From contig DASWWQ010000169.1 of assembly GCA_036405935.1 (NCBI GenBank), positions 1-54,763 of the forward strand: DNA of 54,763 nucleotides, read 5' to 3'. Numbering within the stretch: position 1 is the stretch's first letter; every line of letters begins with the position of its first letter. This document shows positions 4,448 to 35,752 of the stretch, piece by piece. This DNA comes from Flavobacteriales bacterium (GTDB lineage Bacteria > Bacteroidota > Bacteroidia > Flavobacteriales_F > PHOS-HE28). Below the pieces are notes generated by a model. The model was not told the DNA's origin. It saw only the letters and a list, made by a program, of their open reading frames with translations, and did not search any database. Made by a program: the position numbers and the translations under genes.

Positions 4448-5134
4448 TCAACGCTCCTTCCTCGGGATCCAGTCCAACAATCCGATCAGTTCCGAATGAT
4501 ACTCGGCCACCCCACCATCGATCCGCTCAGTACCTCTGAGGCCGGTGAAACGATCCCGCCATCCGTCCAGATCATGCGCTGCACAGAGGAATAGATAGGC
4601 GACCAGTTCCTCGTTCAGGAAAGAGGCCGAATGAAGTCGCTTCTCCCATTGCTCAAGTTGAACGGTAGTGGGTACAGGTAGTTCAACGATCAAGGTGGAG
4701 CGCGTATCGATTGTCATGTTACCGCTTGGGTCCGCTGACCTGCTGAATTCCCATTTCCAACACGGTACGCTCATAAGATCCAGGAGCGGACCTTGAGGTA
4801 CCGTCATCAGCTCCATCACCACCAGCGAGGAATCCGTCACGGAGATGGTACACGTTTCCACAGCACTCCATTCGTGAAAGGAGGTGTCGGGGGCGGAGCA
4901 GTCATAAAGAGTGAACTCGGAAAAGAACGTGCCTTCATTCCCTCGGTCGATGTAGCCACAGAGCCCGATGGTGAGGTCCGATGTCACATGGAACAAGGAG
5001 TCCGGCGGTTTCAACTCATCATCCAGAAAGTCCCGGCATTGGCACGCGGGTACTTGACCGAAGGCGCTGTCGGAGCTGAAGCAAATGACCATGGCAACGG
5101 CCAGTAGAGCTCGCGACAACTGTAGAAAGGGCAT
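4448..5134 (-). CDS. Hypothetical secreted protein
   Basis: ORF 4448..5242 trimmed to the ATG at 5134 (MPFLQLSRALLAVAMVICFSSDSAFGQ signal peptide). No recognisable domain. Confidence 0.5.
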   Translation of the reverse strand: MPFLQLSRALLAVAMVICFSSDSAFGQVPACQCRDFLDDELKPPDSLFHVTSDLTIGLCGYIDRGNEGTFFSEFTLYDCSAPDTSFHEWSAVETCTISVTDSSLVVMELMTVPQGPLLDLMSVPCWKWEFSRSADPSGNMTIDTRSTLIVELPVPTTVQLEQWEKRLHSASFLNEELVAYLFLCAAHDLDGWRDRFTGLRGTERIDGGVAEYHSELIGLLDWIPRKER

Positions 5135-5238
5135 GGGGTAGGGAAAACAGTGGCACTGCAACGATCCCGAAGGTAGCGTACCCCCAACGTCAAAAGGGCC
5201 CCCTTGCGGGAGCCCCTTCGATCGAAGAGCGGTAGCTA

Positions 5239-6828: not shown

Positions 6829-7013
6829 GTGGAGGGTGTTTCGTTGTCGGCTGGATTTTCGGGTAGGTCCTTCCGTTTCAGCGCCTCGAGTTGTTCGAGC
6901 AGTTTCCGCCAGGCCGCTTGCTTCTCCTTCGCTCGTTCATGCATGCGTTCGAGGCGGGCCAAAGCGTCGGCCGGATCGGCGGATTTCGGGTGACGGATGG
7001 GGTCGTGGGTCAT
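6825..7013 (-). CDS. Small charged helical protein, hypothetical
   Basis: 62 aa. Its stop overlaps the downstream start (ATGA at 6825..6828), suggesting coupling. No homology recognised. Confidence 0.35.
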   Translation of the reverse strand: MTHDPIRHPKSADPADALARLERMHERAKEKQAAWRKLLEQLEALKRKDLPENPADNETPST

Positions 7014-7209
7014 GGACGGACTTCATTCCGCCAAGGGTGGATGGGAAGCCGGGGCGAATGTGCGGGGTGGTCCGGCCAGGTGGTGCCGGAAGAGACCCCA
7101 CATCCACTGCACAGCCGAACAGAAGGACCTTACATCCGCATTACAGGCCGAGCTAACCAGCTGATGAACAATAGGTTGGTGGCGATGGTTCCTTGGCCTG
7201 AAAATGCCG

Positions 7210-7327
7210 CAACGCAGAGGGCAAAGGCGCAAAGGACGCAGGGTCTGGAACGCTGAACGGCGCCACCAAGCGGGAGCCAAAGCATGGGAATAGCTCTGCG
7301 GCCTCCGCATCTCCGCCCTCTGCGTTG
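7210..7327. repeat. 13-bp perfect inverted repeat (CAACGCAGAGGGC / GCCCTCTGCGTTG) enclosing 92 nt
   Basis: Arms at 7210..7222 and 7315..7327. The right arm lies 8 nt beyond the stop of the TPR-LuxR regulator gene. The loop contains GCAAAGGCGCAAAGGACGCAG. Confidence 0.6.
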
Positions 7328-7334
7328 GACCGAT

Positions 7335-9041
7335 TCAGATCGACTGCAGGAAACCGATCAGGTTCACCTCCTCCCCCTCGATGCCGAGCTTCTTCCGGAG
7401 CCGTGAACGGGCCACGGTGATGCTGTTCAGGGTCTGCTGGGTGATGGCCGAGATGTCCTTGGTGGACATGTTCAGGCGGAGGAAGGCACAGAGCTTCCGT
7501 TCGTTGGGGGTGAGTTCGGGGAAGCGCTCCTGCAGCGTGCGGTAGAAGTTGGAGTGCACCCGGGTGAAGTGCGCCTCGAACGCCGCCCAGTTGTGTTCGT
7601 CGTGGTTCGCCTGAAGATCCCGGACGATCTCCTGGATCACCTGCTGGTTCTCCTGGCGGAAGGTGGGTTTGGCCTTCAGCAGGCGTTCGGCGATGTGCGC
7701 GATCAGCTCGTTGCGCTTCAATAGGAACAGGGCGTTGGCCGTCAGCTCGCGGTCCTTGGAGTCGAGGTTCTCGCGCAACGAGGCCTGCTCCGCCTCCAGC
7801 TTCTCGCTCTCCAACCGGAGCTTCTCGCTCTCCAGGCGCAGCTTCTCCTGTTCCAGGCGACTGTTCCTTACCCGCGCGCGCATCACCTTGAAGAGCAGGA
7901 AGGCGGTGAGCAGGAGGAAGAACAGCGCCCCGGCCAAGGCGATGTTCCAAAGGCGTTGCCGCGCATTCTCAGCGTCCTTGCGCTGCGCTTCCGCGCGGAA
8001 GGTCTCCCGTTCCTTGTCGCGCCGGAACTCCTCCTCCAGGCGGGCGATGGTCAACCGGCTGTCGGCGTTGTAGAGGCTGTCGTTGAGCGCCTTGAAGGCG
8101 CGGTGTGCGTCGAGCGCCGCCTCGTGGTTGCGCAGGGTGTCGTACACGAGCGACAAGGATTCCAGGGAGATCACCATCGACTCCCGGCTGCCGATCGCCT
8201 TGCCGATGGCCAGGGCCTTCTCGAAATGCTCCTGCGCCTCGGCGAACCGCCCGTAGAACACCTGGTTCTTCCCGAGGTTGTTCAGCACCTGCGCCTGACC
8301 ACGGGCATCACCCAGTTCCTTCCGCACGGCCAGCGACCGCAGGAAGTGCTCGTTGGCCCGGTCGTACTGCCCCATCTCCATCAGGCAGATGCCGATGTTG
8401 TTGTTCAAGGAGCTTTCGTTGCGCAGGTCGTGCAAGGGCCGGTTCATGCGTACGGCCTGCTCGAAGTAGGGCAGGGCCGTGGCGTAGTCGGAACGTTGGA
8501 TGTACACGCCGGCCATGTTGTTGAAGAGGCGCACCTTGCGCAACGCCAGCTGTGCGGTGTCCAAGCCCTGCGCCCCATCCAGGATACGCAAGGCCTCGTT
8601 GTAGCTGGCGATGCTCTTGTCCAGATCGCGCAGGTGGAAGTGCAACAGGCCGATGGCCATGCGGATGTCGGCCTGGGCCAGCCGCAGCTCCGGGGCTTCG
8701 GGGGACTTCGTCAACGCCTCCTCCACCGTGCGCTGCGCCCGCTGGTAGGTGGCCAGTGCAGCGGGCATCTCCCGCACGCCTTGGTAGGCATCGCCCAAGG
8801 TGATCAGCACACGCGCCCGATCGGCCGGTGATCGCATCGTATCGATGTGCTGTTCGTCCCGCAGCGCGAGCGCCAAGGCGGAGTCGGGATCCAAGGAGTG
8901 CCGGGTCCGTTCCGCATCGGGCGACGGGGTGCCCTGTTGGGCCGAGGCCGGGATGCTCACCAAGGCGATCAGCAACGCGATGCACCCTTGGAGCACGCGT
9001 GTGCTCCGTGACGAAGCGATGGGGCGGATCCGGTCGGTCAT
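7335..9041 (-). CDS. TPR-repeat protein with transmembrane/coiled-coil segment and C-terminal LuxR-type HTH (Bacteroidota TPR-LuxR regulator)
   Basis: ORF 7335..9173 trimmed to the ATG at 9041 (MTDRIRPIASS..., signal-like LIALVSIPASAQQ). Multiple TPR-like repeats, a TM helix (IALAGALFFLLLTAFLLF) and a coiled coil. C-terminal LTPNERKLCAFLRLNMSTKDISAITQQTLNSITVARSRLRKKLG. Confidence 0.8.
   Translation of the reverse strand: MTDRIRPIASSRSTRVLQGCIALLIALVSIPASAQQGTPSPDAERTRHSLDPDSALALALRDEQHIDTMRSPADRARVLITLGDAYQGVREMPAALATYQRAQRTVEEALTKSPEAPELRLAQADIRMAIGLLHFHLRDLDKSIASYNEALRILDGAQGLDTAQLALRKVRLFNNMAGVYIQRSDYATALPYFEQAVRMNRPLHDLRNESSLNNNIGICLMEMGQYDRANEHFLRSLAVRKELGDARGQAQVLNNLGKNQVFYGRFAEAQEHFEKALAIGKAIGSRESMVISLESLSLVYDTLRNHEAALDAHRAFKALNDSLYNADSRLTIARLEEEFRRDKERETFRAEAQRKDAENARQRLWNIALAGALFFLLLTAFLLFKVMRARVRNSRLEQEKLRLESEKLRLESEKLEAEQASLRENLDSKDRELTANALFLLKRNELIAHIAERLLKAKPTFRQENQQVIQEIVRDLQANHDEHNWAAFEAHFTRVHSNFYRTLQERFPELTPNERKLCAFLRLNMSTKDISAITQQTLNSITVARSRLRKKLGIEGEEVNLIGFLQSI
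7799..7861 (-). repeat. 3 x 21-bp tandem repeat inside the regulator coiled coil (encodes EKLRLES heptads)
   Basis: The three units are gcttctcgctctccaaccgga, gcttctcgctctccaggcgca and gcttctcctgttccaggcgac. Confidence 0.7.
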
Positions 9042-9222
9042 CAACGGTGGCGGGGTGGCGGCCAAAACTAAGTGGACCTTCCGGCCAGGACAATCGCGTT
9101 GCTCCGGTCGTTCCCCACCGCATGGAATGCACGAACGGCACCAGCCATATCGCGCTGCGATCCGGCGGGACAACCCAGCGGCCGGAACGCAAGGGGGCGT
9201 CGGTCGGTGCTCTTGGCGCCGC

Positions 9223-9990
9223 TCAGATGACCCCCGCTGCCAGCAGGGCCGCGATCGCCAGGATCAGCAGACCGACAAGGAGCTGCACCCCACGCATGGT
9301 CACCTTGGGGATCACCTTGCGCCCCCACCAGGCACCGAGGAAGGCCGCAAGCGTTGCAGCTGTCAGCAAAGGCCACTGATCCTGGAGGCCGAGCACGGTT
9401 CCACCGCGCAGATAGGTGGGTAGCCGCGTAAGGTCCACCAGACAGGCTATGGCCACGCCGCTGGCGATGAAGGCTTCCTTGCCCAGCCCGCTGCGCAACA
9501 GGAAGATGCTGCGGAGTGCACCTTGGTGCCCGCTCAGTCCCCCGAAGAAGCCGCTGACCACCCCGCCGGGTATCATCCAGTCCGGTGGTAGCGAGAGCTT
9601 GTTCAAGGTGCTGGAGATCTCGAACAGGCCGAACACGAGCATCGATCCGGCGATGATCAGGTCCAGGGGATCCACCGGATGCAGCACGCCTTGGTACAAG
9701 GCTTCGCGTGTGCCGAGCATCAGCATGAGGCGCGCACCGAGGAGGGCACCGAGAACGCCCGGCACACCGAAGAGCAGGATGGTGCGCCAGTGGATATCCC
9801 TCCACAGCAGTGCGAGCTTGAAGAGGTTGTTCAGCAAATGCACCACCGCGGTGAGCAGGATGGCCGTTTCCAGGGGAAAGAACAGCGCGAACACCGGCAG
9901 CAACAAAGTGCCCAGCCCGAAACCACTGATCAGGGTGATGAGCGAAGCGGCTAGCGCAACAGCGGGGATGAGGATGAAGGAGGCCTCCAT
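9223..9990 (-). CDS. TauE/SafE (TSUP) family anion exporter
   Basis: 255 aa, polytopic, duplicated 4-TM halves. GFGLGTLLLPVFALF and GGVVSGFFGGLSGHQGALR motifs typical of DUF81/TauE. Confidence 0.8.
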   Translation of the reverse strand: MEASFILIPAVALAASLITLISGFGLGTLLLPVFALFFPLETAILLTAVVHLLNNLFKLALLWRDIHWRTILLFGVPGVLGALLGARLMLMLGTREALYQGVLHPVDPLDLIIAGSMLVFGLFEISSTLNKLSLPPDWMIPGGVVSGFFGGLSGHQGALRSIFLLRSGLGKEAFIASGVAIACLVDLTRLPTYLRGGTVLGLQDQWPLLTAATLAAFLGAWWGRKVIPKVTMRGVQLLVGLLILAIAALLAAGVI

Positions 9991-24054: not shown

Positions 24055-24747
24055 TCAGCGCTTGCTGCTCACGAAATGTCGGAGCTGGTTCATGATGTTC
24101 TCCGCACGCTCCGTAGATACCCGTGGATCGAGGTGTGCGTGGATCGCTTCGTGGAGATCTTTCCGTCGGAGCAGTGAGCTGAACTCCTGCCGGAGGTAGT
24201 GCTGCACATCATCAGGTGCATTCCGGAATTCCTCCAACCACCCCAGCCTGCCATCGAGAACGAAGACGATATCCTCGAAGTCCTTGCTGGTGCGCATGTC
24301 ACCGCCGCGGCTTTTGAACGCTTCCAGTTTGGTGGCCAGGAAATACGGCGTGGTCAACAGCTTGATCGTCGAAGCGTCGGGAAGTACATGGTCCAGAGCA
24401 TGGGTCATGCCGGGTATGTACCACTTGTTCGTGGGGCCGATCGCTGGCACATCCGTTGGCATGATGTCCACCATGACGCCGTGGAACCGATAACGACAGA
24501 TGACCTCATCCTCCGGCGAATGATGGAACCCCAATCGGCGCAGACGTTCTTCCAAGCGCTCATACTCCGTGTAACTGGATACCACGATGACCAGATCGAT
24601 ATCGGAGGTCGGTCGCGGAATATCCGCACCCGGGTCGTTGGCGTACAGACTGACCACTGCGCCACCTACGAACACCACTTGGTCGCGCAGTTCCTCCAGG
24701 CCACCGGCGACCAACTGTACGGATTGGATGTTGATCGTATCGCGCAT
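24055..24747 (-). CDS. Nucleotidyltransferase-fold protein, AbiEii/MNT-like toxin candidate
   Basis: FVGGAVVSLYANDPGADIPRPTSDIDLVI fits the GG/GS...DxD minimal NTase motif. The start overlaps the upstream stop (TGATG; alternative GTG at 24750). Confidence 0.55.
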   Translation of the reverse strand: MRDTINIQSVQLVAGGLEELRDQVVFVGGAVVSLYANDPGADIPRPTSDIDLVIVVSSYTEYERLEERLRRLGFHHSPEDEVICRYRFHGVMVDIMPTDVPAIGPTNKWYIPGMTHALDHVLPDASTIKLLTTPYFLATKLEAFKSRGGDMRTSKDFEDIVFVLDGRLGWLEEFRNAPDDVQHYLRQEFSSLLRRKDLHEAIHAHLDPRVSTERAENIMNQLRHFVSSKR

Positions 24748-25259
24748 CACTTCAAGCGTCTCGCCAGTTCCTTGGCAGCCTCCGCACGTTCGCGCGTACG
24801 GCCCACACGTAGCGCATCCGTGAGTGCAAGGAGCGCGTGAAACTCCGGGTCGTTCAAGGAGGCGGCAACGGCACCCGGATAGAGTGGAGGGATCTCGTGT
24901 CCGCGTTCCTCACCCATGGCCGATGCCCAAACGTAGGTCTCTTCGCTCATGAACTTCGAACGCAACGGTGAAGCGGAATGAGCGGTGGGCACGCCACGTA
25001 CCATACCGCCGGGCCGGGCCGGGAACACATAGGCAAGACCATGCTGAAGGAAGTCGAGCAGCGCCTGGACCGCCACTTTGCGTTTGCCGGTATCGATCAA
25101 ACCGGCCAATGCCGAGCGCTTCAGTGAATTGCTCACCTCAGCAGGGCTCAGATGCAATGCCGCCGCCACCTCCCGGGCCAACCAGGGCTTTTCTCCGAGT
25201 GCCGCGATCTTGAGCAGCACCGCCACATCCTGTGGCCGCATTCCTTTATGAACGTTCAT
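24747..25259 (-). CDS. Winged-HTH protein, AbiEi-like antitoxin candidate
   Basis: 170 aa. N-terminal wHTH-like RPQDVAVLLKIAALGEKPWLAREVAAALHLSPAEVSNSLKRSALAGLI. Coupled to the NTase gene. Confidence 0.5.
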   Translation of the reverse strand: MNVHKGMRPQDVAVLLKIAALGEKPWLAREVAAALHLSPAEVSNSLKRSALAGLIDTGKRKVAVQALLDFLQHGLAYVFPARPGGMVRGVPTAHSASPLRSKFMSEETYVWASAMGEERGHEIPPLYPGAVAASLNDPEFHALLALTDALRVGRTRERAEAAKELARRLK

Positions 25260-25888: not shown

Positions 25889-25920
25889 TTGATCCTATAT
25901 GACTTGGTGGACTTACTTTG
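25889..25920 (+). promoter_or_regulatory. Candidate Bacteroidota-type promoter of the island operon (TTG-N21-TTACTTTG)
   Basis: TTG at 25889..25891 and TTACTTTG at 25913..25920 (7/8 to TAnnTTTG). Lies 27 nt upstream of the ATG at 25948. Confidence 0.35.
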
Positions 25921-25947
25921 GGACAATACGCAAAGCGCAGATTTGGG

Positions 25948-26922
25948 ATGAAGCGTGCAGAAAACAAGCGAACGATTCGCGCGATCGACATGTTCGCTGG
26001 CGGGGGAGGTAGCAGTTGGGGGGCCAAACAGGCCGGAGTGAAGGTGGTTGCCGCGTTTGACTTGTGGCATCTTGCCGAGAAGAACCACGAGGCCAACTTC
26101 CCCGATGTGCGGTTCTATCGTGATCGGCTGGAGAACCTGGATTTGAAAAAGGTCCGTAAAGAGGTGGGCCGGATCGATCTGATCATGGCCTCGCCCGAGT
26201 GCACGAACCACAGCCCGGCCAAAGGCAACAAACCACGCAGCGAGGAAAGCAAGGACACCGCATTTCAAGTCACGCGCTTCGCAGAGGCCTTCAAGCCAAA
26301 GTGGATCGTGGTGGAGAACGTGGTGAACATGCGGAAGTGGTCGCGCTATAAGGAGTTCCAGGGCAAGCTCGAAGCGCTAGGCTATAAGTGCACTGAGCAA
26401 GTATTGAATGCAGCCGACTTTGGAGTGGCCCAAAGCAGGCGGCGACTGTTCCTCCTGTGCCAGCGAGGCAAGAAGGCACCACTCAAGACACACAAGCCCG
26501 ACCTGCCCAAGGTCAGCGTGAGGCCCATCGTGAACATGAACGGTGCGTACCGATGGACACCACTCAACCAGCCCAGACGGGCGAAGGCGACCTTAGAACG
26601 TGCTTCGCGAGGCTTTGAGAAGATGGGCTACAACAGCGCCTTTTTATTAGTCTACTATGGCTCGGATGGCGGTGGTGGCTGGCAGCGATTGAGCCGTCCA
26701 TTGCGCACGATCACAACTGTGGACCGGTTCGCCATCGTGAAGCCGACTCCGCAGGGTCACGTGATGCGGATGCTACAGGTACCGGAACTACAACAAGCGA
26801 TGGGTATGCACGGCATGTGCTTCGAACACGGCACTCGGCGAGACAAGATTAAGATGATTGGGAATGCTGTGTGTCCCCCTGTCATGGCCACTGTACTCAG
26901 AGAACTTACTCGCAACAAGTAA
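25948..26922 (+). CDS. DNA (cytosine-5)-methyltransferase
   Basis: ORF 25918..26922 trimmed to the ATG at 25948. Motif I DMFAGGGG, motif IV ASPECTNHS (P-E-C, not the canonical P-C-Q), ENV (VVENVV), QSRRRLFLL, motif X GNAVCPPV. Confidence 0.92.
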   Translation: MKRAENKRTIRAIDMFAGGGGSSWGAKQAGVKVVAAFDLWHLAEKNHEANFPDVRFYRDRLENLDLKKVRKEVGRIDLIMASPECTNHSPAKGNKPRSEESKDTAFQVTRFAEAFKPKWIVVENVVNMRKWSRYKEFQGKLEALGYKCTEQVLNAADFGVAQSRRRLFLLCQRGKKAPLKTHKPDLPKVSVRPIVNMNGAYRWTPLNQPRRAKATLERASRGFEKMGYNSAFLLVYYGSDGGGGWQRLSRPLRTITTVDRFAIVKPTPQGHVMRMLQVPELQQAMGMHGMCFEHGTRRDKIKMIGNAVCPPVMATVLRELTRNK

Positions 26923-29036
26923 TGGCAGAGCCGGATAGCAAAAAGGGTGTGCAGCTGCATCCGGATGATCTTGTCTTTCAGGTCAAACCGCGCATTCTGG
27001 GACTTCTCGGTGACCAACTAATACGAGACGCTACGCTTGCGGTGTTCGAATTGGTGAAGAACGCATACGATGCCGATGCAAACGAGTGCACCGTAACACT
27101 TGAGGATGCTCTCGATCCGCGCAAATCCCGAATCACGGTCAAAGACAACGGGTCGGGTATGACGCGGGAAACGATTCAAGATTCATGGATGGTGATTGCG
27201 ACAGACTTTCGAACGAGTCAGCGCGCTCGGAACGAAAGAAGTCCTCGGTACAATCGATATGCACTTGGCGAGAAAGGACTTGGGCGCTTCTCTATTCATA
27301 AGCTTGGCCATGAAATCAGAATGACTACAAGGACTGATGGCGGTCCTGAGTATGTTCTGCAAATCCAATGGGATGAACTTGAAAGTTCTAGCGATTTACG
27401 CTTGAGTCCTATTCGCCTGATCACGAGGGAGCCTGAAGTCTTTAAGGGAAAGAAGCATGGCACCCTTATGGAAATTTGGAAGTTACGAGAAGTGTGGGAG
27501 CGTGGTTCCGTGAGACGACTGCATCGTGCCGTGAATAGTCTTTGTTCCCCATTTGACGCCCCCGATGACTTCAAGGTCGAGCTAAAGGTGCCGGGGAATG
27601 AGGAACTGCTTAAAGGACTGCTTCAGGCAGAGAAGATTCCGACTTATGCGCTATACCACGTAAAAGGGCACTTCGAAGGTCATAGGTTGGAGTTTGACTA
27701 CAAGTTCACACCACCGGTTGGACTGCAGCCACTGTTGACCCCGAGCAAGAAGGCCAAGCATTTCTCAGGTAACCTTCAGCGGAAAGAGCTCAAGGGCAAA
27801 CGCAAGCAAGTAACGTTCGATCTGTCGCAACATGAAATTGGTCGGGTTGAATTCGAATTCTGGTTGTTTGATCGGGATCCAGCCGTCTTGCGTGCATCGA
27901 CGGATGACATCAAGGGACTCAAGGATTACCTCGATGAGAATGGTGGGGTAAGAATCTACCGCGACGGAATACGTGTTTATGACTTTGGAGAGCCAGGTAA
28001 TGACTGGCTGAATCTGGATATCCGACGCGTTAACACGCCAACTGCACGTACAAGTAACAATCAGATTATTGGTGCTTTATGGCTCTCAGCTGAGGATAGC
28101 GGCGACCTGAGAGAGAAATCAAATCGTGAGGGGTTCATTGAAAGTCCCGCCTTCAACGATTTCAAAGACGCCGTCATTTCGGTTCTAACCAACGTTGAAG
28201 CAGAGAAGACCCGGGATCAGCAGCACGTGCGCGAAGCTGTTGGTAAGGGCACTGGAGGTCGTGTTTTCACGCACCTGAATGAGTTGCGCGATACGCTTGC
28301 GCAAAAGGGCATGCTGGAGGAGTTGGACCCCCAATTGAAGAAGGTCGAACGCGAGATGGAGTTGTACCGCGACCAGCTATTGCATGCGGCCGTTCCAGGT
28401 CTCTCCATGGGCATGATGCTTCATGGTGCTGAGAAAATCATGGAAGAGCTTCGCGCTGCGGTCAACAAGGGCGAGAGTGTAAAGCACGTTGCAGCGCTTG
28501 TTGATCGGCTGTACAGAGCGATGCGACCGGTCACAAACCTGCTGAAGGACCCAGGCATCGGCAAAACGACGGCCACCGCGTTAATCGCGGAAGCCAAGTT
28601 CTCGACGGCGTTACGTCTTAAGCGTCATGGCATCGCCCCGATCTATCCAGAGCGCCCGTTTGATTTCCCCGTGCGTGGCTCAAAACAAATGCTGGTTGCC
28701 GCGCTTACCAACTTGGTTGACAACGCAATCCACTGGCTAGAGGTCAAGAACCCGGATAAGAAGATTCTCTATCTGAGCACGACAAACGATTTGAGTTCGG
28801 GGCCGGCCATCGTGGTGGGGGACAATGGTCCTGGATTCGGGAGTGATGATCCTCAAGATCTGGTCCTGCCCTTCTTTACACGACGGAGAGACAGCATGGG
28901 ACTCGGTCTCTATATCGTTAACGAGGTAATGGCAGCGAATCAAGGGCGATTGGTCTTTCCGGCAAAAGGAGATATCAACCTGCCGAAGGAAGTTACCGGT
29001 GCCGTGGTCGCGTTGCAGTTTCCAGACAAGCCATGA
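26922..29036 (+). CDS. Double Bergerat-fold protein: N-terminal MORC/MutL/Hsp90-type GHKL ATPase module plus C-terminal histidine-kinase-like DHp + CA module
   Basis: The ATG at 26922 shares one nt with the MTase stop (TAATG). N-terminal half: ELVKNAYDA (N box), DNGSGM (G1, nt 27144..27161), GEKGLGRFS (G2). C-terminal half: helical MMLHGAEKIMEEL (His501, nt 28422..28424), NLVDNAIHW, GDNGPGF (nt 28821..28838), GLGLYIV. No TM segments. Confidence 0.8.
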   Translation: MAEPDSKKGVQLHPDDLVFQVKPRILGLLGDQLIRDATLAVFELVKNAYDADANECTVTLEDALDPRKSRITVKDNGSGMTRETIQDSWMVIATDFRTSQRARNERSPRYNRYALGEKGLGRFSIHKLGHEIRMTTRTDGGPEYVLQIQWDELESSSDLRLSPIRLITREPEVFKGKKHGTLMEIWKLREVWERGSVRRLHRAVNSLCSPFDAPDDFKVELKVPGNEELLKGLLQAEKIPTYALYHVKGHFEGHRLEFDYKFTPPVGLQPLLTPSKKAKHFSGNLQRKELKGKRKQVTFDLSQHEIGRVEFEFWLFDRDPAVLRASTDDIKGLKDYLDENGGVRIYRDGIRVYDFGEPGNDWLNLDIRRVNTPTARTSNNQIIGALWLSAEDSGDLREKSNREGFIESPAFNDFKDAVISVLTNVEAEKTRDQQHVREAVGKGTGGRVFTHLNELRDTLAQKGMLEELDPQLKKVEREMELYRDQLLHAAVPGLSMGMMLHGAEKIMEELRAAVNKGESVKHVAALVDRLYRAMRPVTNLLKDPGIGKTTATALIAEAKFSTALRLKRHGIAPIYPERPFDFPVRGSKQMLVAALTNLVDNAIHWLEVKNPDKKILYLSTTNDLSSGPAIVVGDNGPGFGSDDPQDLVLPFFTRRRDSMGLGLYIVNEVMAANQGRLVFPAKGDINLPKEVTGAVVALQFPDKP

Positions 29037-30436
29037 TTGAACAGCTCACTTCACCTTCAGTTTGCCTGATTGACGACGAAGCCGAGGACTATGGGCCGAT
29101 GCTAAAGGCCTTGTTCAGGCTGGGGGTCGCATGTATTCACTTTACAGGCTCGTCACATAAAGGAACGCCCAAGAAGCCTTTGGCAGATTTGCAACTCGTG
29201 TTCATGGATTTGCATCTGCAAGGCAGCATGGGCAAAACGGCGACTGCTCATGCCGTGAACGTTTTCACAAAGACAGTTTCTCCCAAGGCTGGTCCAGTGG
29301 TGGTGGTCATTTGGAGCAAGTATGCCAACGATCCTCCTCACGATCTCCCTCCCGAAGATGAGGCAACTACAGAAGTTGGCCGTTTCAAAACCGCGCTTAA
29401 GGAAACGATGGGTGATGCCTATGATCGCCTAATCATGTTAGTAATGCCCAAACCTCATCGAAATCAAAGGCCAGCCAATGATCGTTGGGTTCGCGATGTT
29501 GCAAACGGGGTAAAGCAAATTCTTGGGCAGCGCGCGGGTATCGGCCTCCTCTGGTCATGGGAGAAGATGGCAAAAGACGCTGCGGGTTCTGTATGTGGAA
29601 TCTTGACAACGCTCGCACTTGGCATGGCTCGTGCGAGCAATGCACCGGCTACTGATGATGGAGGGGAGCCTCTGAATGAGAACATAAAGCAGCTCATGAA
29701 GCTGCTCGCACAGTCCCAAGGTGCATCAGACTGTAGCCCCAAAACCGCCGCGCGCTACCTCATCATGACGATGAATCAATTGGCGCAAGACCAGCTCGAA
29801 CACTTTGTGATCCCCAAGAAGGTCGATGAACAAGGCGCATGGCTCTCAAATGCCTTGAATGCAAATGAACCCCCAGGATTGGATCGAGCTGAACTGAACG
29901 CGATGCTCCTTAGCACCCAGTCAACGGGACAAGATTTCAAACCGGGTACCGTTTATGAGGTGGAGAATGCCTCGGCGTGGGAGAGGCATACTGGACTGAG
30001 CCTCGAAGAGCTGAGATTCGATTGTTGTGTAAAAGGAGCCACAGCCCTTGCAGAGTTGACAGCCAATAGCACTCTGGTTCTCGTGGAATTGACACCTAGT
30101 TGTGACTACGCTCATGTGGGCAAGAGGAAGACCTCGGTTCTTATGGCGGGGCTTGCTGTAAATGAGGCTGCACTAAGACACATCAAGACAGCAGGAACTA
30201 CTAAAATTATTCCTCAGCCGATTGGCGGCAATCAGAGAAATCCGCTGACTAATCGCTTTGCCACGCCTCAGAAGAAGATTGGATTTGTCTTCTGCAGCAT
30301 GTATCCAACAGTTCTGCCTTTGAAGAAGCAACCTAAATGGATTAAGCCCATGGCGCGATTGCGAGAGACCGTGGCAATGGACGTACGATACTGGGCCTCA
30401 TCGCAAGCCGCCCGAGTGGGCTATCTGTCAGTCTGA
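29033..30436 (+). CDS. Receiver (REC)-domain protein with unassigned ~325-aa C-terminal domain
   Basis: ATGA overlap with the upstream gene. REC signature residues are present: LIDDE (D14, D15), VFMDLHL (D59, nt 29207..29209), VVVIWSKY (S95), VMPKP (K140-P141). I recognise no HTH, TM or catalytic motif downstream. Confidence 0.75.
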   Translation: MIEQLTSPSVCLIDDEAEDYGPMLKALFRLGVACIHFTGSSHKGTPKKPLADLQLVFMDLHLQGSMGKTATAHAVNVFTKTVSPKAGPVVVVIWSKYANDPPHDLPPEDEATTEVGRFKTALKETMGDAYDRLIMLVMPKPHRNQRPANDRWVRDVANGVKQILGQRAGIGLLWSWEKMAKDAAGSVCGILTTLALGMARASNAPATDDGGEPLNENIKQLMKLLAQSQGASDCSPKTAARYLIMTMNQLAQDQLEHFVIPKKVDEQGAWLSNALNANEPPGLDRAELNAMLLSTQSTGQDFKPGTVYEVENASAWERHTGLSLEELRFDCCVKGATALAELTANSTLVLVELTPSCDYAHVGKRKTSVLMAGLAVNEAALRHIKTAGTTKIIPQPIGGNQRNPLTNRFATPQKKIGFVFCSMYPTVLPLKKQPKWIKPMARLRETVAMDVRYWASSQAARVGYLSV

Positions 30437-30563
30437 CGATAAGCTTCAGTCATATCAGTGTTTCTGCCTCTCCCCAGAGAACACCTTGAAGAGCAAGAGG
30501 CCCTCCACCGCTCCTCCAAAGAGCATCCGCGACGTGGATGGTCTGTTGGTCCAAGTCACGGTA

Positions 30564-31016
30564 ATGCCAGATGACTTGCTCCTACTTCTGCGCGCCAGAT
30601 TGGAAGAAGAGATGCGCAAGCGTAAGATTGCATTCTCAGTCGGGGCGGTCGGTGAGGGACTTGTGATAAGCCATTTCAAAGGAACTCCTGGACTACCTAA
30701 TCTTCAACTTGCTCCTACCGGAACGAAGAATGTCGATGCGCTTTCGCGAAATGGTGATCGCTATTCGATCAAGACCATCTGCAATGCGAAGAAGACAGGG
30801 ACGATCTATCCCGACGCTTTGGACAAGGACAGACAGCTTTTTGAGTACTTGATTATCGCGCGTTTGACTGCTGACTGGTCATTGCATAGCATTCATCAGT
30901 TCAGCTGGAGCGCTTTCTTGGAAGTTCGTTCGTGGGACAAACGGATGAACGCTTGGTATGTAGCCATTTCTGAACGAGCCATGGCTAAGGCAACGCGCAT
31001 CTTGCCGGTTGAGTAG
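30564..31016 (+). CDS. Small PD-(D/E)xK-like protein (candidate restriction-endonuclease-fold), hypothetical
   Basis: ORF 30486..31016 uses a TTG start. The first ATG is at 30564 (MPDDLLLLLRARL...). GAVGEGLVISHF...GTKNVDALSRNGDRYSIKT gives an E...D...(S)xK arrangement resembling the nuclease core. The assignment rests on motif only. Confidence 0.45.
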   Translation: MPDDLLLLLRARLEEEMRKRKIAFSVGAVGEGLVISHFKGTPGLPNLQLAPTGTKNVDALSRNGDRYSIKTICNAKKTGTIYPDALDKDRQLFEYLIIARLTADWSLHSIHQFSWSAFLEVRSWDKRMNAWYVAISERAMAKATRILPVE

Positions 31017-32331: not shown

Positions 32332-32734
32332 TGCGTCGTTCAGCATGTGACGTGGGCGTACTATTTCGTAGCCACGATCAGGAACGCGAAAATATCCTTC
32401 GTGAAGGCGAAAGGCCGGAGGCCTACATATTCGTGCCGGGGACTTGGTCCGAAGTGACCGGATCAGGCCAAGAACGGATCTACTTGGTTGCCATCGACCG
32501 AACGCGTTCGAACCCAACGGCGTTGATGACCCTTGGATCGAACCCGCTGGAAAGTTCCTGGAACGGCGGAGCCGGTAAGGTGTCCGAAATCGTCATGCCG
32601 GAAGAGTTGTTCGCATCGACATCACCTGCGTGACGGACCGCACATGGCCCTGCGCGGGAAGTTGACGCGTAGCGAGTTCTCGCTATTGGAAGGGTGCCTC
32701 GGTCCGGCGTTCTTTGCTCGTTCAACCTCCTCCC

Positions 32735-35700
32735 ATGCGTGCCCTTTTCCTGTACTTCGTCCTGCTGCCCGTCCTGCTGAAGGCCCAAACACCCACCTAT
32801 GCCTGGGCCCACAGTGTGCGCAACGTAGGCACGGACGGGCAAGGGAACCAGTGCATCGATGTGTCCACCGCCCCCGATGGTAGCCTGTATGCGATCGGGA
32901 TCTCGTACGGCACGGAGGTGATCATCGACGATGTGCTGCTGCCCATGCAGGGCGACCGCCGCTACCTGGTGCGTTTCGACAGCACGGGTAATCCCTTGTG
33001 GAGCCGCAGTCCGGGTGGTTGGGCGGTGGCCGCGGATGGGAATAATGGTGTCTATGTAGCCGGCTTGTTGTTCCAACCGCTCACCTTCGCCGGTACCACC
33101 TACACCCCCAGCGGCAACGATGCCTTCCTGGCGAAATACGGTCCCGATGGCGAGGAACTCTGGCTCCGCAGAATGGGTGGTGCGGGCGATGATGGCGCCT
33201 TCGATGTGGCCGTGGATGGACTGGGCCGCGTGCATGTGAGCGGTTTCTTCACGGGCACGGTGGACTTCGGTGGTGCCACGCTCACGGCCACGCATGCACA
33301 AACGGGTTTCCACGCCAGCTACAACGCTGCCGGTAACCTGCAGTGGGCCGCGCTGGCCGGTGGATACGACCCACCGGAACCGGGGGTGTACACCTGGAAC
33401 GCCCTTGCCTGTGACGGGGAGGGCAACAGCTACATCACGGGCAATTTCACCGGCACCGGTCTGTTCGGAACCAATAGTACGTCCATCAACACCACGCAGA
33501 CCGAACGGCAGTACCTGGCGCGATACGATGCGAACGGCGCCTGCATCTGGGCGGTGGTGAACGGCTCCGCTACGGGGAATGTGGGATCCCACATCTCCCT
33601 ATCCGCCACCGGTGGATTGTACCTGTGCGGCAGTTTCAAGGGTACGGCGGCTTCGTTCGGAGCGAACAACACGGTGTACAATGCGCACCCCAACAACGCT
33701 CAGATCTACGTGGCCCGGTACGACACCGCAGGCGATGGGCAATGGGCCGTGATCCTGACCGGTGGCGTGTTCGGCAGCTCCGCCAGCAGCGTTTGCACCG
33801 ATGCTGCCGGCACGGTGTGGGTGACCGGAACAGCGGGGTCGGGCAGCTCGGACCCGGAGGATGAACTCGTGGATGTCGGTGGCTTCGAGGTATTCGACAA
33901 CCTGATCTTCATTGGTCAGCTCGATCCCGATGGCACGGTGCTGAACGTGGAGAACATGGTGGGCCTGCAATCGCACGGCGCGCACACCATCGATGCCTTC
34001 GGCGCCCACATCACCTACGGATCGCTCTTCAGCTACCGCAATTTCGACCCTGCGGGCATGGCGGTGTTCGGCTCGTCGTTGCTCGATGCCGACAACGGCT
34101 ATGTGGCGCGCTATTCACCCGGCTTCGCATACCGCTGGTTGCGGATGGCGGGGCAGCCTGGCGTGGCGGCTGATGCCACCACCGCCGTGGCGTTGGGCAC
34201 CGCTGGGGAGGTATACAGCACGGGCTACTTCAACACCACGGCCATCATCTGCGGTGACACCTTGTGGGCACCGTTGGAGAACACGCACATCTGGCTGAAC
34301 AAACGTGCGGCGGACGGCAGTTGCTTGTGGAAACGGCAGATCAGGTGCAGCCGCGCCGGCAGCATGTCGCAGGTCAACGCGGCCTTGGGCATGGCCGTAG
34401 CGGCGAACGGCGATGTGGTGTTGTGCGGTCGTTTCTTCGGCACCATCGACTTCGGTGCGGTGCAGTTGACGAGCGTGGGGCGGGCCGACCTCTTCCTGGC
34501 GCGCTTCAACGCGGACGGCACCTGCTTGTGGGCCGTGCGCGGCGGTGGCACCGGTGATGACGAGGGCACCGCGCTCGCGCTGACAGCGAATGGCGACATC
34601 GGGGTCACCGGTGCGTACACGGGCAGCGCCACGATCGCGGGTGTTGCACTCACCAGCCAAGGTGCCACCGACGGTTTCGTGGCGCGGTACAGCGGTAGTG
34701 GGAACAGCCTGGCCTGTGCAAGCTTCGGTGGCAGCGCGGCGGACTTCGGTTCGGCCATTGCCGTGGACGCGACAGGCAACGCATACGTTGCGGGCCGCTT
34801 CACCACCAGCGCCACCTTCGGCACCACCACGCTGGAGAGCACGGCTCTGGAAGACCTCTTCGTAGCGCAATACACGCCCACCAATACCGTGGGGTGGGCA
34901 GTGGGCAGCACGGGTGCGGACCACAAACAAGCGAACGGCATCGCCTTGGGTGCGGGCGGTCGCCTCCATGTGGTAGGCACCTACTACGCGAGCCTCACCT
35001 GGGGTGCCACCACGATCATGGGCGACCCCGCGGCATACCACCCCTTCTTCGCCACCCTGAACACCGCCGGTGAAATGCAATGGTTGCATGACCTGCCCTG
35101 CACCGACGGTTCCGCCCAGGTCATCCGGGTGCGCCCCGGTGGCGAAGTGGTGGTGGGCGGCCAATTCAGCGGAAGTCTGGATGTGGGCACCACGACCGTG
35201 ACCACGAGCGGCACATCGGCAGCTTGGATGGCCGCATTCAACCCCGAAGGCGAAGACCATTGGGTGCAGGTGATGGAGGGCAGTACCAGCGGCGATGCAG
35301 GCCTCTGCTCCACCCTTGCCGTGGACGCCGAACAGGTGATCGCTGGCGGCCATTTCGGCAACTACGTCTTCATGGCCTTTTTCCAACCCGGTTCCACCTT
35401 CTCGTTCGATGCAGGGAGCACTGCTGATGATCTGTTCGCGCCGAACAGTTACGACGCCTACGTGGCGAAGTACACCATCCCGCAGATCATGGCCATCGAT
35501 GAAAGGGGCAGTTCGGCGTTGCTGCTCGCCCCGAACCCGGTGACCCGCACCGGCACCGTCCAACCCGATGCTCCGCTTGCCCCCGACGCCACGGTCCGCA
35601 TCAACGACATCACCGGCCGCACGGTCCACGTACCCTTGCTCCGGCAAACGGAACGGTTCACCTTCGATGCAAGCGCCTTGGCACCGGGAACCTATTTGCT

Positions 35701-35752
35701 CACGCTGGAGCAAGGTGGGATGCAGCGCAGTGTGCGCTTCGTGAAGGAGTGA
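32735..35752 (+). CDS. Large SBBP-type beta-propeller repeat protein with T9SS C-terminal sorting domain
   Basis: ORF 32714..35752 trimmed to the ATG at 32735 (MRALFLYFVLLPVLLKAQ). Repeated GxxxDxGxAIAVDxxGNxYVTGxF units. C-terminus LLLAPNPVTRTGTV...GTYLLTLEQGGMQRSVRFVKE. Confidence 0.8.
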   Translation: MRALFLYFVLLPVLLKAQTPTYAWAHSVRNVGTDGQGNQCIDVSTAPDGSLYAIGISYGTEVIIDDVLLPMQGDRRYLVRFDSTGNPLWSRSPGGWAVAADGNNGVYVAGLLFQPLTFAGTTYTPSGNDAFLAKYGPDGEELWLRRMGGAGDDGAFDVAVDGLGRVHVSGFFTGTVDFGGATLTATHAQTGFHASYNAAGNLQWAALAGGYDPPEPGVYTWNALACDGEGNSYITGNFTGTGLFGTNSTSINTTQTERQYLARYDANGACIWAVVNGSATGNVGSHISLSATGGLYLCGSFKGTAASFGANNTVYNAHPNNAQIYVARYDTAGDGQWAVILTGGVFGSSASSVCTDAAGTVWVTGTAGSGSSDPEDELVDVGGFEVFDNLIFIGQLDPDGTVLNVENMVGLQSHGAHTIDAFGAHITYGSLFSYRNFDPAGMAVFGSSLLDADNGYVARYSPGFAYRWLRMAGQPGVAADATTAVALGTAGEVYSTGYFNTTAIICGDTLWAPLENTHIWLNKRAADGSCLWKRQIRCSRAGSMSQVNAALGMAVAANGDVVLCGRFFGTIDFGAVQLTSVGRADLFLARFNADGTCLWAVRGGGTGDDEGTALALTANGDIGVTGAYTGSATIAGVALTSQGATDGFVARYSGSGNSLACASFGGSAADFGSAIAVDATGNAYVAGRFTTSATFGTTTLESTALEDLFVAQYTPTNTVGWAVGSTGADHKQANGIALGAGGRLHVVGTYYASLTWGATTIMGDPAAYHPFFATLNTAGEMQWLHDLPCTDGSAQVIRVRPGGEVVVGGQFSGSLDVGTTTVTTSGTSAAWMAAFNPEGEDHWVQVMEGSTSGDAGLCSTLAVDAEQVIAGGHFGNYVFMAFFQPGSTFSFDAGSTADDLFAPNSYDAYVAKYTIPQIMAIDERGSSALLLAPNPVTRTGTVQPDAPLAPDATVRINDITGRTVHVPLLRQTERFTFDASALAPGTYLLTLEQGGMQRSVRFVKE

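Follow-up and report, generated by a model that had tools for sequence, protein, structure and literature searches.

A MutL/MORC-type ATPase fused to a sensor-kinase core and encoded with a receiver-fold partner beside a cytosine-5 methylase

Closest described systems

The closest counterparts of the locus analyzed here were described in a purely computational study by Bellieny-Rabelo, Pretorius, and Moleleki (2021; PMC8011034), in which proteins combining HATPase_c_3, HEF_HK, and HATPase_c were found to occur with Response_reg_2 and to be linked to restriction-modification. In that study, the HEF_HK kinase showed 91.6% linkage with a receiver-like gene, the methylase neighborhood was significantly enriched over shuffled genomes, and a regulatory role was suggested for the pairs. 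The proteins encoded in the window, that is, the whole 54,763-nucleotide stretch of Flavobacteriales DNA that was analyzed, share with these pairs a soluble architecture of ~700 aa (HATPase_c_3, a DHp-like His helix, and HATPase_c), an adjacent receiver-like gene, an upstream C5 methylase, frequent Vsr in the family, and a patchy distribution among phyla. However, the window proteins are missed by both PF19191 and PF19192, the residue that follows the core His is Gly in the window clade versus Glu or Asp in the published family, and the window adds a small nuclease. The window clade is a divergent member of an architecture and a genomic context already published in 2021, and the present result is a well-supported annotation, not a discovery. 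For annotation purposes, the 2021 Pfam models miss most of the family, the window clade included.

Prokaryotic MORC and paraMORC proteins (Iyer, Abhiman, and Aravind 2008; PMC2292703), like the window protein, possess intact GHKL motifs followed by an S5-type domain, and paraMORC neighborhoods, as here, include cytosine methylases and Vsr. The paraMORC families, however, carry nuclease, TIR-like, or uncharacterized domains at their C-termini, or have helicase partners, and none was reported to combine a kinase core with a receiver partner. Type II restriction enzymes of the BbrUII/HgiDII type (NF050001) have at their N-terminus a GHKL domain whose subtype is that of aa 21 to 219 of the window protein, a similarity seen also with PADLOC REase_II models, and are likewise associated with C5 methylases. 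Nevertheless, the window protein scores 85.5 bits against a cutoff of 550 and covers profile positions 5 to 196 of 659 only, the rest of it being a kinase core that is proposed to signal to a separate protein.

The C-terminal 210 aa share the His hairpin and the N, G1, F, and G2 boxes of the catalytic ATP-binding (CA) domain with class I kinases (CpxA, EnvZ, and PhoR type), and the partner protein shares the DD/D/T/K receiver signature with CheY-like response regulators. Unlike class I kinases, the window kinase lacks transmembrane, PAS, and HAMP segments, places a second complete GHKL ATPase in the sensor position, has no HisKA match, carries Gly at H+1, and is paired with a receiver protein that has no known output domain. 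In bacterial immunity, CapK-CapS (PMC13373217) resembles the window in that a GHKL-fold kinase links a nucleic-acid signal to phosphorylation of an adjacent partner, which for the window is a proposal. Single-stranded DNA switches CapK on, and phosphorylation of its partner controls immune operons. In contrast to the window kinase, CapK belongs to the anti-sigma-factor-type Ser kinases and carries HTH and STAS domains, it phosphorylates a STAS-wHTH repressor, and CapK-CapS includes no His-Asp chemistry, MORC-like module, or methylase.

Two GHKL modules of different subtypes in one protein

The features of the locus are as follows.

25918..26922, + strand: C5 cytosine DNA methyltransferase, 334 aa from TTG (Pfam, TIGR00675, PADLOC)
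26922..29036, + strand: GHKL ATPase and histidine-kinase core fusion, 704 aa, soluble (translation, profile searches, AlphaFold [AF2] model)
26979..27536, + strand: MutL/MORC/Hsp90-type Bergerat ATPase domain, aa ~20 to 205 (HATPase_c_3, motif conservation, Foldseek)
27564..28136, + strand: transducer (S5-like) middle domain, aa ~215 to 405 (beta-rich with helices in AF2; Foldseek)
28146..28379, + strand: three long linker helices from transducer to kinase core, aa 409 to 486 (AF2 helices 409 to 439, 446 to 461, and 465 to 486)
28395..28553, + strand: DHp-like helical hairpin, aa 492 to 544, with candidate phospho-acceptor His501 (conservation, AF2)
28560..29021, + strand: sensor-kinase type CA domain, aa ~547 to 700 (NCBIfam, PDB, conservation)
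29033..30436, + strand: receiver-domain partner, 467 aa, start overlapping the kinase stop by 4 nt (ATGA)
30486..31016, + strand: small accessory protein, 176 aa from TTG, start uncertain (PADLOC, conserved residues)

The 704-aa protein was confirmed to consist of a MutL/MORC/Hsp90-type ATPase, a transducer, linker helices, a DHp-like hairpin with His501, and a CA domain. Its ATG at 26922 shares bases with the stop of the methylase gene lying upstream (TAATG); initiation at an alternative GTG (26871) would make the protein 17 aa longer, but the N-termini of homologues instead line up with the Met at 26922. The original prediction, made from the DNA letters and their translation, was that a single polypeptide carries two different Bergerat-fold modules. 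This was borne out: the open reading frame is real, the Pfam, NCBIfam, and PDB matches lie well beyond chance, and the peptides quoted in support (ELVKNAYDA, DNGSGM, GEKGLGRFS, NLVDNAIHW, GDNGPGF, GLGLYIV, and GGVRIYRDGIRVYDFGEPGNDWLNLD) are all present in the translation. HATPase_c (PF02518) matches two separate stretches of the protein (E=2.3e-19, Pfam), and the two modules belong to different GHKL subtypes, with profile searches confirming the predicted HATPase_c_3 of the MutL/MORC/Hsp90 type at the N-terminus and the sensor-kinase CA type at the C-terminus. In both modules, the ATP-binding motifs show at least 97% conservation, being kept in 78 to 80 of 80 relatives at 37 to 64% identity.

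In the N-terminal module, HATPase_c_3 (PF13589) matches aa 40 to 181 (E=3.3e-20, 72.9 bits versus a cutoff of 25, Pfam). Motifs I (E43/N47), II (D75-x-G77-x-G79), III (G116-x-K118-G119-x-G121), and IV (G180-T181) are kept in 78 to 80 of the 80 relatives (97 to 100%). The segment from aa 21 to 219 resembles the N-terminus of the BbrUII/HgiDII restriction enzymes (3e-24) and MutL (2e-6) in NCBIfam, and the weak matches of the N-terminus to PDB entries are MutL, HtpG, GyrB, and MORC3.

The middle region, which the original prediction had left unassigned, turned out to be the transducer half of the MutL/MORC/Hsp90-type ATPase. The whole N-terminal half superposes on MutL LN40, MORC2/3/4, and the N+M domains of Hsp90/TRAP1 (Foldseek, E about 1e-8 to 1e-10), with TM(target) values of 0.51 for MutL LN40 and 0.40 to 0.42 for MORC3, and with TRAP1 and GRP94 also matched; the S5 assignment is based on these whole-chain matches, obtained with an AF2 model of the 704-aa protein of mean pLDDT 73. 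The AlphaFold check that had been suggested yielded both a beta-rich middle domain with this superposition and a helical hairpin before the CA domain. The transducer contains a strongly conserved loop, GEPGNDWLNLD-RRVNTPTARTSNNQ (aa 356 to 381), an EK-NREGF motif, and K399, a candidate gamma-phosphate-sensing lysine.

The hairpin helices (496 to 515 and 520 to 540) directly precede the alpha/beta CA domain in the AF2 model. His501 (codon 28422-28424; motif MMLHGAEK) is found in 80 of 80 relatives from genomes and in 41 of 43 distant representatives. The protein accordingly has two GHKL domains and an invariant His501, in line with the predicted phospho-acceptor, although this His is not the single one in the segment: His488 and His522 sit in the same helical region, and neither is conserved among the 80 relatives. 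In the phmmer alignment, the H-box of the histidine kinase 9p6i was placed on the nonconserved His488. Profile searches recovered HATPase_c_3 and HATPase_c but no HisKA-type model, with no Pfam match to HisKA, HisKA_2, HisKA_3, or HWE_HK in the 704-aa protein. HEF_HK (PF19191) failed to match the whole protein or aa 437 to 573 alone, even at E<=10, and was likewise missing from three relatives at ~38 to 44% identity. Weak HEF_HK matches are present in 4 of the 43 distant representatives; three identified matches (17.8 to 21.4 bits, below the 24.1 cutoff) come from full-length homologues and map onto window aa 492 to 544, with T-H-E aligned to L-H-G. Judged by this alignment, the DHp-like hairpin corresponds to the HEF_HK region of the distant relatives. 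The 704-aa protein is a relative with the HEF_HK architecture that falls outside the Pfam family as modelled.

The residue after the core His is Gly in 18 of the 80 relatives (the window protein and its whole clade), Glu in 61, and Gln in 1. In HisKA-type kinases, the acidic residue that follows the His assists catalysis. Because Gly replaces this residue after His501, autokinase activity in the Gly502 clade may be low or proceed in another way.

The CA domain retains the N box (N597/D600/N601), the G1 box (D634-x-G636-x-G638), the F box (F651), and the G2 box (G660-x-G662), the motif residues being kept in 79 to 80 of 80 relatives. In NCBIfam, aa 554 to 702 match the CA domains of CpxA, PhoR, AtoS, and CreC (1.7e-9 to 1.5e-8), and aa 486 to 682 match the PDB entries of 9p6i (9.4e-7) and CpxA (1e-3).

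A receiver-fold partner in a methylase cassette

The original prediction passed over the gene context, in which the order is methylase, kinase, receiver protein, and small nuclease. The 467-aa partner consists of a REC-like (beta-alpha)5 domain (aa ~8 to 165), a helical region (aa 166 to 295), and an alpha/beta domain (aa 296 to 467). In the AF2 model, strands 10 to 13, 35 to 37, 55 to 59, 89 to 95, and 133 to 139 with helices between them form the (beta-alpha)5 fold, and the receiver pattern of an acidic pair after beta1, an Asp after beta3, a Thr/Ser after beta4, and a Lys after beta5 is satisfied by D14, D15, D59 (codon 29207-29209), S95, and K140-P141. Among the partner's homologues, D14 is conserved in 97%, D15 in 91%, D59 in 100%, and W94 in 99%, together with T/S95 and K140 (94 to 100%). 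Foldseek retrieved only response regulators and flavodoxins (Rv1626, EutV, PorX, RcpB, and flavodoxins), and 9 of the 12 weak matches in a PDB profile search are receiver domains in which the DD and D59 positions fall in register.

Neither PF19192 (Response_reg_2) nor PF00072 matched the whole partner or its aa 1 to 156, even at E<=10; no Pfam, NCBIfam, or PADLOC family matched the partner, four relatives gave no Pfam receiver match, and none of 21 database homologues has a precomputed Pfam domain. In distant plasmid-borne relatives, the partner matches the canonical Response_reg (2e-5 to 3e-6) and is named "response regulator" by PGAP.

The C-terminal part of the partner contains the invariant residues N289, G305, C357-D358, R442, R444, R461, and G463. 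Within the C-terminal domain, no Lys or His is conserved, and Foldseek gave no structural match, which argues against a PD-(D/E)xK or HNH nuclease. The Campylobacter partner aligns weakly with this domain (hhalign E=0.021, probability 2%), with the PSCD and AR-G motifs kept. The partner evolves faster than the kinase, with 32 to 39% versus 57 to 64% identity.

The methylase matches Pfam DNA_methylase (7e-38), TIGR00675 dcm (3.9e-31), and the PADLOC DrmMII model (2.5e-96); its true start may be a few codons downstream of the TTG. The 176-aa protein is probably a PD-(D/E)xK-type nuclease, given its match to the PADLOC "type II methyl-directed restriction enzyme" PDLC03213 (1.2e-47) and the residues E57, D84, S94-I-K96, Q117, and E120 conserved among 17 homologues. 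No Vsr gene is present in the window.

Neighborhoods were compared across 79 related loci from many phyla. The receiver partner adjoins the kinase in 73 of them, and 52 of these 73 show the 4-nt overlap seen in the window. A C5 methylase is present in at least 67 of the 79 loci (a homologue of the window methylase in 63 and another C5-methylase family in 4), and was not found in 12, several of which are truncated contigs. Methylase and kinase reading frames often overlap or abut, in several gene orders. Vsr, a repair nuclease, is present in 57 loci, whereas the small nuclease is present in only 14, next to the methylase or the receiver gene; homologues of this nuclease also occur in a different GHKL/Z1 cluster, next to Dcm-Vsr, and by themselves in a Bacillus prophage-like region. 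Among the 79 loci, no further family of nucleases recurs, the largest extra neighbor family being present in 9. A HMMER search of 1.84 billion representatives yielded 1206 clusters (50% identity) at E<=1e-30, nearly all ~700 aa in length and matching end to end, and labeled "sensor histidine kinase" or "ATP-binding protein" in databases. The family is patchily spread across many phyla, and members were also identified on conjugative plasmids of Campylobacter, Burkholderia, and Rhizobium. In the favored reading, the cassette is built around cytosine-5 methylation and is horizontally mobile. In the window, it lies in a low-GC island (0.52 versus 0.63) and adjoins an AbiEii toxin gene.

A possible phosphorelay and its alternatives

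The best explanation of the whole, held with moderate confidence, is a soluble hybrid sensor kinase with a receiver partner within a C5-methylation cassette. The paraMORC/MutL-type GHKL ATPase and the S5-like transducer would occupy the usual place of the sensor domain, and the C-terminal half would serve as a class-I-like kinase core. The methylase, whose identity is clear from its profile matches, would mark host DNA. The MORC-like module would then bind ATP and dimerize in the manner of GHKL-S5 ATPases, probably while on DNA, when a signal from nucleic acid or methylation state arrives. This change could travel along the linker helices and reach the DHp hairpin, where the CA domain, judging from its intact motifs, would phosphorylate His501, and the phosphoryl group would pass to Asp59 of the receiver protein, a step suggested by the conservation of the receiver residues and by the coupling of the two genes. 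The phosphorylated receiver might, more speculatively, activate its fast-evolving C-terminal domain, with which the adjacent small nuclease may act in this sub-clade, jointly restricting foreign DNA or stopping infection. The original prediction that, through the fusion, an ATPase event would give rise to a phosphorylation signal is supported, and gains evidence because the five phospho-chemistry residues are all retained in the product of the coupled receiver-fold gene. We infer kinase activity, DNA clamping, and phosphotransfer from these features; a limited literature search found no bench experiment on any family member.

A more specific version, offered tentatively and somewhat short of probable, is a His-to-Asp phosphorelay inside a methylation-based self/non-self system, in which the MORC-like clamp would sense foreign or unmethylated DNA and the receiver C-terminus would be a new kind of effector. 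In this putative effector domain, a Cys-Asp pair and three Arg are invariant, no Lys or His is conserved, and there is no structural relative. Were this reading correct, it would be the first restriction-type defense under the control of two-component chemistry, with the Gly502 clade as a natural H-box variant. A genuine phosphorelay would bring together two of the most familiar bacterial themes, two-component signalling and restriction-modification, and the family would offer a tractable bacterial model for DNA sensing by MORC-type ATPases.

It is unlikely that the kinase half is instead a pseudo-kinase, or a second ATPase or dimerization module, with the 704-aa and 467-aa proteins forming a stable ATP-dependent restriction complex in which the receiver serves for docking and no phosphotransfer takes place. 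Such a complex would fit the lack of HisKA, HEF_HK, or Response_reg_2 matches in the window proteins, the change of the acidic H+1 residue to Gly throughout the window clade, and the common role of GHKL domains as ATP-driven dimerization switches, which the Foldseek neighbors illustrate. Yet a scaffold needs neither an invariant His501 nor intact N, G1, F, and G2 boxes, nor the joint conservation of D14, D15, D59, T/S95, and K140, and these kinase and receiver residues are kept even inside the Gly502 clade.

Two-component systems mostly regulate transcription, and a similarly improbable reading is that the pair acts as a controller protein does, adjusting the expression or activity of the neighboring methylase or restriction genes without being restriction machinery itself. 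A regulatory role was suggested by the 2021 authors (PMC8011034), and the window methylase and small nuclease could already make a conventional type II pair. The long helical region and C-terminal domain of the receiver protein could bind DNA (AF2), but searches of this protein with Pfam, NCBIfam, and Foldseek revealed no DNA-binding output domain, whether HTH, wHTH, or of another kind. Furthermore, 65 of the 79 related loci have no small nuclease or other recurrent nuclease to regulate, and the fast evolution of the receiver fits an arms-race effector better than a housekeeping regulator.

Less probable still is that two independent systems are neighbors in a defense island, namely, a methylase (with or without Vsr and the small nuclease) and a methylation-independent kinase-receiver abortive-infection module: an Enterobacter mori plasmid pair, a distant relative, lies beside an AbiJ-like gene with no annotated methylase in its 5-kb flanks, 12 of the 79 loci lack a detected methylase, and the small nuclease travels with Dcm-Vsr in a different system or alone, but the methylase recurs across many phyla and gene orders, often in overlapping or abutting frames (TAATG in the window), several of the 12 exceptions are truncated contigs, and the enrichment over shuffled genomes in the 2021 study (PMC8011034) was significant.

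The cassette and its genomic island

The original prediction, that the protein encoded at 26922-29036 of the window combines two GHKL ATPase modules of different types in a single polypeptide, proved to be essentially right, and the feature is real. The gene for this 704-aa protein (hereafter, the kinase) lies in a low-GC island (GC ~0.52 at window ~25.5-31.3 kb versus 0.63 in the flanks) that holds a cassette of four co-directional genes:

25918-26922, +: C5 cytosine DNA methyltransferase (Pfam DNA_methylase, 7e-38; PADLOC DrmMII, 2.5e-96)
26922-29036, +: 704-aa protein with two GHKL modules (kinase)
29033-30436, +: 467-aa receiver-fold protein (recognized by AlphaFold2, Foldseek, and conservation)
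30486-31016, +: 176-aa protein (PADLOC "type II methyl-directed restriction enzyme")

The stop codon of the methylase gene overlaps the ATG of the kinase gene (TAATG), and the stop codon of the kinase gene and the ATG of the 467-aa gene share a 4-nt overlap. The arrangement suggests a single operon. A scan for sigma-70 promoters and terminators gave counts no higher than those in shuffled controls, as expected if the host belongs to the Bacteroidota. No tRNA, integrase, or convincing flanking direct repeats were found at the island boundaries.

A gene for an AbiEii-type nucleotidyltransferase toxin (24055-25259, -; Pfam, 1.5e-11) directly adjoins the cassette. The gene upstream of it, with a 4-nt overlap between the two, encodes 170 aa, matches no family, and is possibly the AbiEii antitoxin. 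With this pair next to the cassette, the region resembles a defense island. A 1012-aa protein encoded at 32714-35752 (+) has a C-terminal sorting domain for type IX secretion (Por_Secre_tail), a sign of a Bacteroidota host.

ATP-binding modules and candidate phospho-acceptor of the kinase

All of the motif peptides quoted in the original prediction were found in the translation of the kinase gene, and searches of Pfam, NCBIfam, and the PDB agree on two GHKL modules of different types. Pfam places HATPase_c_3 at aa 40-181 (3.3e-20) and HATPase_c on two separate stretches. In NCBIfam, similarity to the N terminus of the BbrUII/HgiDII restriction enzymes (3e-24) and to MutL (2e-6) covers aa 21-219, and similarity to the CpxA, PhoR, AtoS, and CreC catalytic domains (1.7e-9 and weaker) covers aa 554-702. 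Among PDB sequences, the N terminus weakly matches MutL, HtpG, GyrB, and MORC3, and aa 486-682 match histidine kinases (9p6i, 9.4e-7; CpxA, 1e-3). Conservation and modeling together show two intact ATP-binding modules: the N-terminal motifs (E43, N47, D75-G77-G79, G116-K118-G119-G121, and G180-T181) and the C-terminal motifs (N597, D600, N601, D634-G636-G638, F651, and G660-G662) are kept in 78-80 of 80 sequences.

From the N terminus, the AlphaFold2 model (mean pLDDT, 72.9) runs through an alpha/beta domain of the GHKL type at aa ~20-205, a middle domain rich in beta strands at aa ~215-405, and three long helices spanning aa 409-486. A hairpin of two helices (496-515 and 520-540) follows, and another alpha/beta domain for ATP binding (aa 547-700) comes last. 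In Foldseek, the model matches GRP94, TRAP1, Hsp90, MORC2/3/4, and the N-terminal 40-kDa fragment of MutL (E values of 1e-8 to 1e-10 over 440-500 aligned columns; TM score of 0.51 normalized to MutL LN40). By these matches, the middle region, previously left unassigned, is the predicted transducer half of a MutL/MORC/Hsp90-type ATPase. A PHROG family of unknown function (phrog_8137, a 572-position profile) matches aa 345-473, which cover the conserved transducer loop and linker helices (3.6e-25), so this part of the protein is also found in some phage proteins.

The helical segment had been thought to carry a single plausible phospho-acceptor histidine. Two others, His488 and His522, also lie in it, and His501 is the residue that stands out by conservation: located in the modeled hairpin preceding the second module, it is present in all 80 relatives of the kinase (37-64% identity, from genomes of many phyla) and in 41 of 43 more distant representatives (27-41% identity). 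His488, which a phmmer alignment to the H-box of PDB 9p6i had put forward, was ruled out because this position is occupied by T, H, S, A, or R in the relatives.

A weak point of the kinase reading is the residue that follows His501. In relatives, the sequence around the histidine is h-H-E-(V/I)-E-(K/R)-G; the window protein and its clade have L-H-G-A-E-K, with glycine in place of the acidic residue after the histidine. The window protein and every one of the 18 clade members among the 80 relatives, which are all the sequences with at least 57% identity, have this Gly502 (28425-28427); 61 of the 80 have Glu. The change is thus specific to the clade and affects a residue that normally assists kinase catalysis. 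Two further histidines, both outside the hairpin, are almost invariant: His569 (28626-28628), where the CA domain begins (80/80 relatives and 34/43 distant representatives), and His126 (27297-27299), which follows motif III in the N-terminal module (79/80 relatives).

The receiver-fold partner and the 176-aa protein

The 467-aa protein belongs to no Pfam, NCBIfam, or PADLOC family. Its N terminus is receiver-like: among 69 orthologs from the related loci, D59 (VFMDLHL) is present in 100%, D14 in 97%, D15 in 91%, and W94 in 99%, 71% have Thr at position 95, where the window protein has Ser, and 94% keep K140, which precedes a Pro in the window protein. Two smaller alignments agree on the conserved receiver positions, and K140 is invariant in both. 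An acidic pair, an Asp, a Thr or Ser, and a Lys constitute the canonical set of CheY-like receivers; alignments and model alike show that the coupled partner keeps the phospho-acceptor residues. In the AlphaFold2 model (pLDDT, 75.1), a (beta-alpha)5 domain at aa 10-165 is followed by long helices (aa 168-293) and an alpha/beta domain (aa 300-460), and Foldseek retrieves flavodoxins and response regulators (Rv1626, EutV, PorX, and RcpB). The family profile gave 12 weak matches to PDB sequences, 9 of them to receiver domains, with the DD pair and D59 positions in register.

For the C-terminal domain, no match was found in Pfam, NCBIfam, PADLOC, PHROGs, the PDB profile search, or Foldseek against PDB and BFVD. 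Invariant or nearly invariant residues in the C-terminal part are W176, E177, D253, N289, G305, C357-D358-x-x-Q, R442-L-R444, and R461-x-G463; the Cys-Asp pair and the three Arg are strictly invariant. The ortholog alignments contain no conserved Lys or His in this domain, which argues against a PD-(D/E)xK or HNH nuclease. The 467-aa protein diverges at about twice the rate of its operon neighbors: in same-genome comparisons with the window, the receiver protein has 32-39% identity, the kinase 57-64%, the methylase mostly 52-70% (26% at one outlier locus), and the small protein 61-71%.

Among PADLOC models, the one for a type II methyl-directed restriction enzyme recognizes the 176-aa protein (1.2e-47); the PDB search gave no relatives for it. 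E57, D84, S94-I-K96, Q117, and E120 are kept across 17 homologs, a pattern compatible with a PD-(D/E)xK core. Its gene adjoins the methylase gene in some loci and the receiver gene in others. A homolog on Rhizobium etli p42f also follows Dcm-Vsr in a different GHKL/Z1 cluster, and another occurs by itself on a Bacillus thuringiensis plasmid, in a region that resembles a prophage. The protein may serve the methylase as its cognate nuclease, be a methyl-directed add-on, or act together with the receiver protein. It would be odd for a methylase to be accompanied by a methyl-directed nuclease.

Distribution, related families, and proposed mechanism

A scan of one genome per species yielded 80 loci, 79 of them distinct, in lineages that include Alpha-, Beta-, and Gammaproteobacteria, Acidobacteriota, Verrucomicrobiota, Planctomycetota, Chloroflexota, Gemmatimonadota, Myxococcota, and Bacteroidota.

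Gene content of the related loci
Receiver-like gene directly after the kinase gene: 73/79 loci
Same 4-nt kinase/receiver overlap: 52 of the 73 loci
Homolog of the window's methylase: 63/79 loci
Different C5-methylase family: 4 more loci
Vsr: 57/79 loci
176-aa protein: 14/79 loci

By these counts, the core consists of the methylase, (in many loci) Vsr, the kinase, and the receiver protein, with the small protein as an accessory, and gene content shows a conserved link of the cassette to cytosine methylation. Unlike the 57 loci with Vsr, the window lacks this gene. No other nuclease recurs in the related loci, the largest additional neighbor family being present in 9/79. At E ≤ 1e-30, the kinase family comprises 1206 clusters (50% identity), nearly all of ~700 aa and matching end to end.

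No known defense system was recovered: PADLOC reached the N-terminal GHKL domain alone, through type II restriction enzyme models, and the receiver protein had no match. MADS, reportedly an eight-gene N6-adenine-methylase system, looked unrelated. The same architecture has been described by comparative genomics: Bellieny-Rabelo et al. (2021; PMC8011034) reported proteins combining HATPase_c_3, a new DHp-like domain (HEF_HK, PF19191), and HATPase_c, of which 91.6% are linked to a receiver-like Response_reg_2 (PF19192) protein, with C5 methylases upstream and Vsr downstream, and proposed an origin from paraMORC ATPases. Earlier, Iyer et al. (2008; PMC2292703) described GHKL-S5 "paraMORC" ATPases in restriction-modification neighborhoods with cytosine methylases and Vsr. 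The window proteins are not direct members of HEF_HK or Response_reg_2 by Pfam, even as isolated segments at E ≤ 10, and several of their relatives likewise match neither model. Four of the 43 distant full-length homologs gave weak HEF_HK matches; the three identified score below the gathering threshold and fall on window aa 492-544, where their T-H-E lines up with L-H-G. Given the shared design and the lack of Pfam matches, the window proteins are of the same architectural kind, in a clade beyond the reach of these models. The kinase, a divergent representative of this computationally described family, does not amount to a new kind of system; accurate annotation is warranted, and it would be a good target for experiments.

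Searches under HEF_HK, Response_reg_2, and paraMORC turned up no experiments with any family member, and a recent study published under a different name is possible. CapK-CapS (PMC13373217) is a conceptual analog with experiments, in which an ssDNA-activated GHKL-type kinase phosphorylates its partner and so controls immune operons. In the mechanism that we propose, the MORC-like half would act as the sensor through ATP-driven dimerization, probably on DNA; the kinase core would phosphorylate His501; the phosphoryl group would move to Asp59 of the receiver protein; and that protein's C-terminal domain, with or without the small nuclease, would perform restriction or abortive infection. A methylation-linked role in defense is likely for the cassette, and phosphotransfer within the kinase/receiver pair is nearly as probable. 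The mechanism taken as a whole we favor slightly.

More distant versions are borne on plasmids. A distant form of the kinase occurs in 41 Campylobacter plasmid records, conjugative plasmids of pTet size among them; the plasmid examined, C. jejuni pAR-0413-1 (4998-9463), encodes it with a 340-aa response regulator and dcm. PGAP names on this plasmid are "sensor histidine kinase," "response regulator," and dcm. Such distant plasmid-borne partners match the canonical Response_reg (2e-5 to 3e-6), and the partner from Campylobacter gives a weak alignment to the 467-aa protein's C-terminal domain, keeping PSCD and AR-G (hhalign E = 0.021, probability 2%). The Enterobacter mori pair adjoins an AbiJ-like gene, with no annotated methylase within the 5-kb flanks. 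Hymenobacter-like plasmids also bear distant relatives of the cassette.
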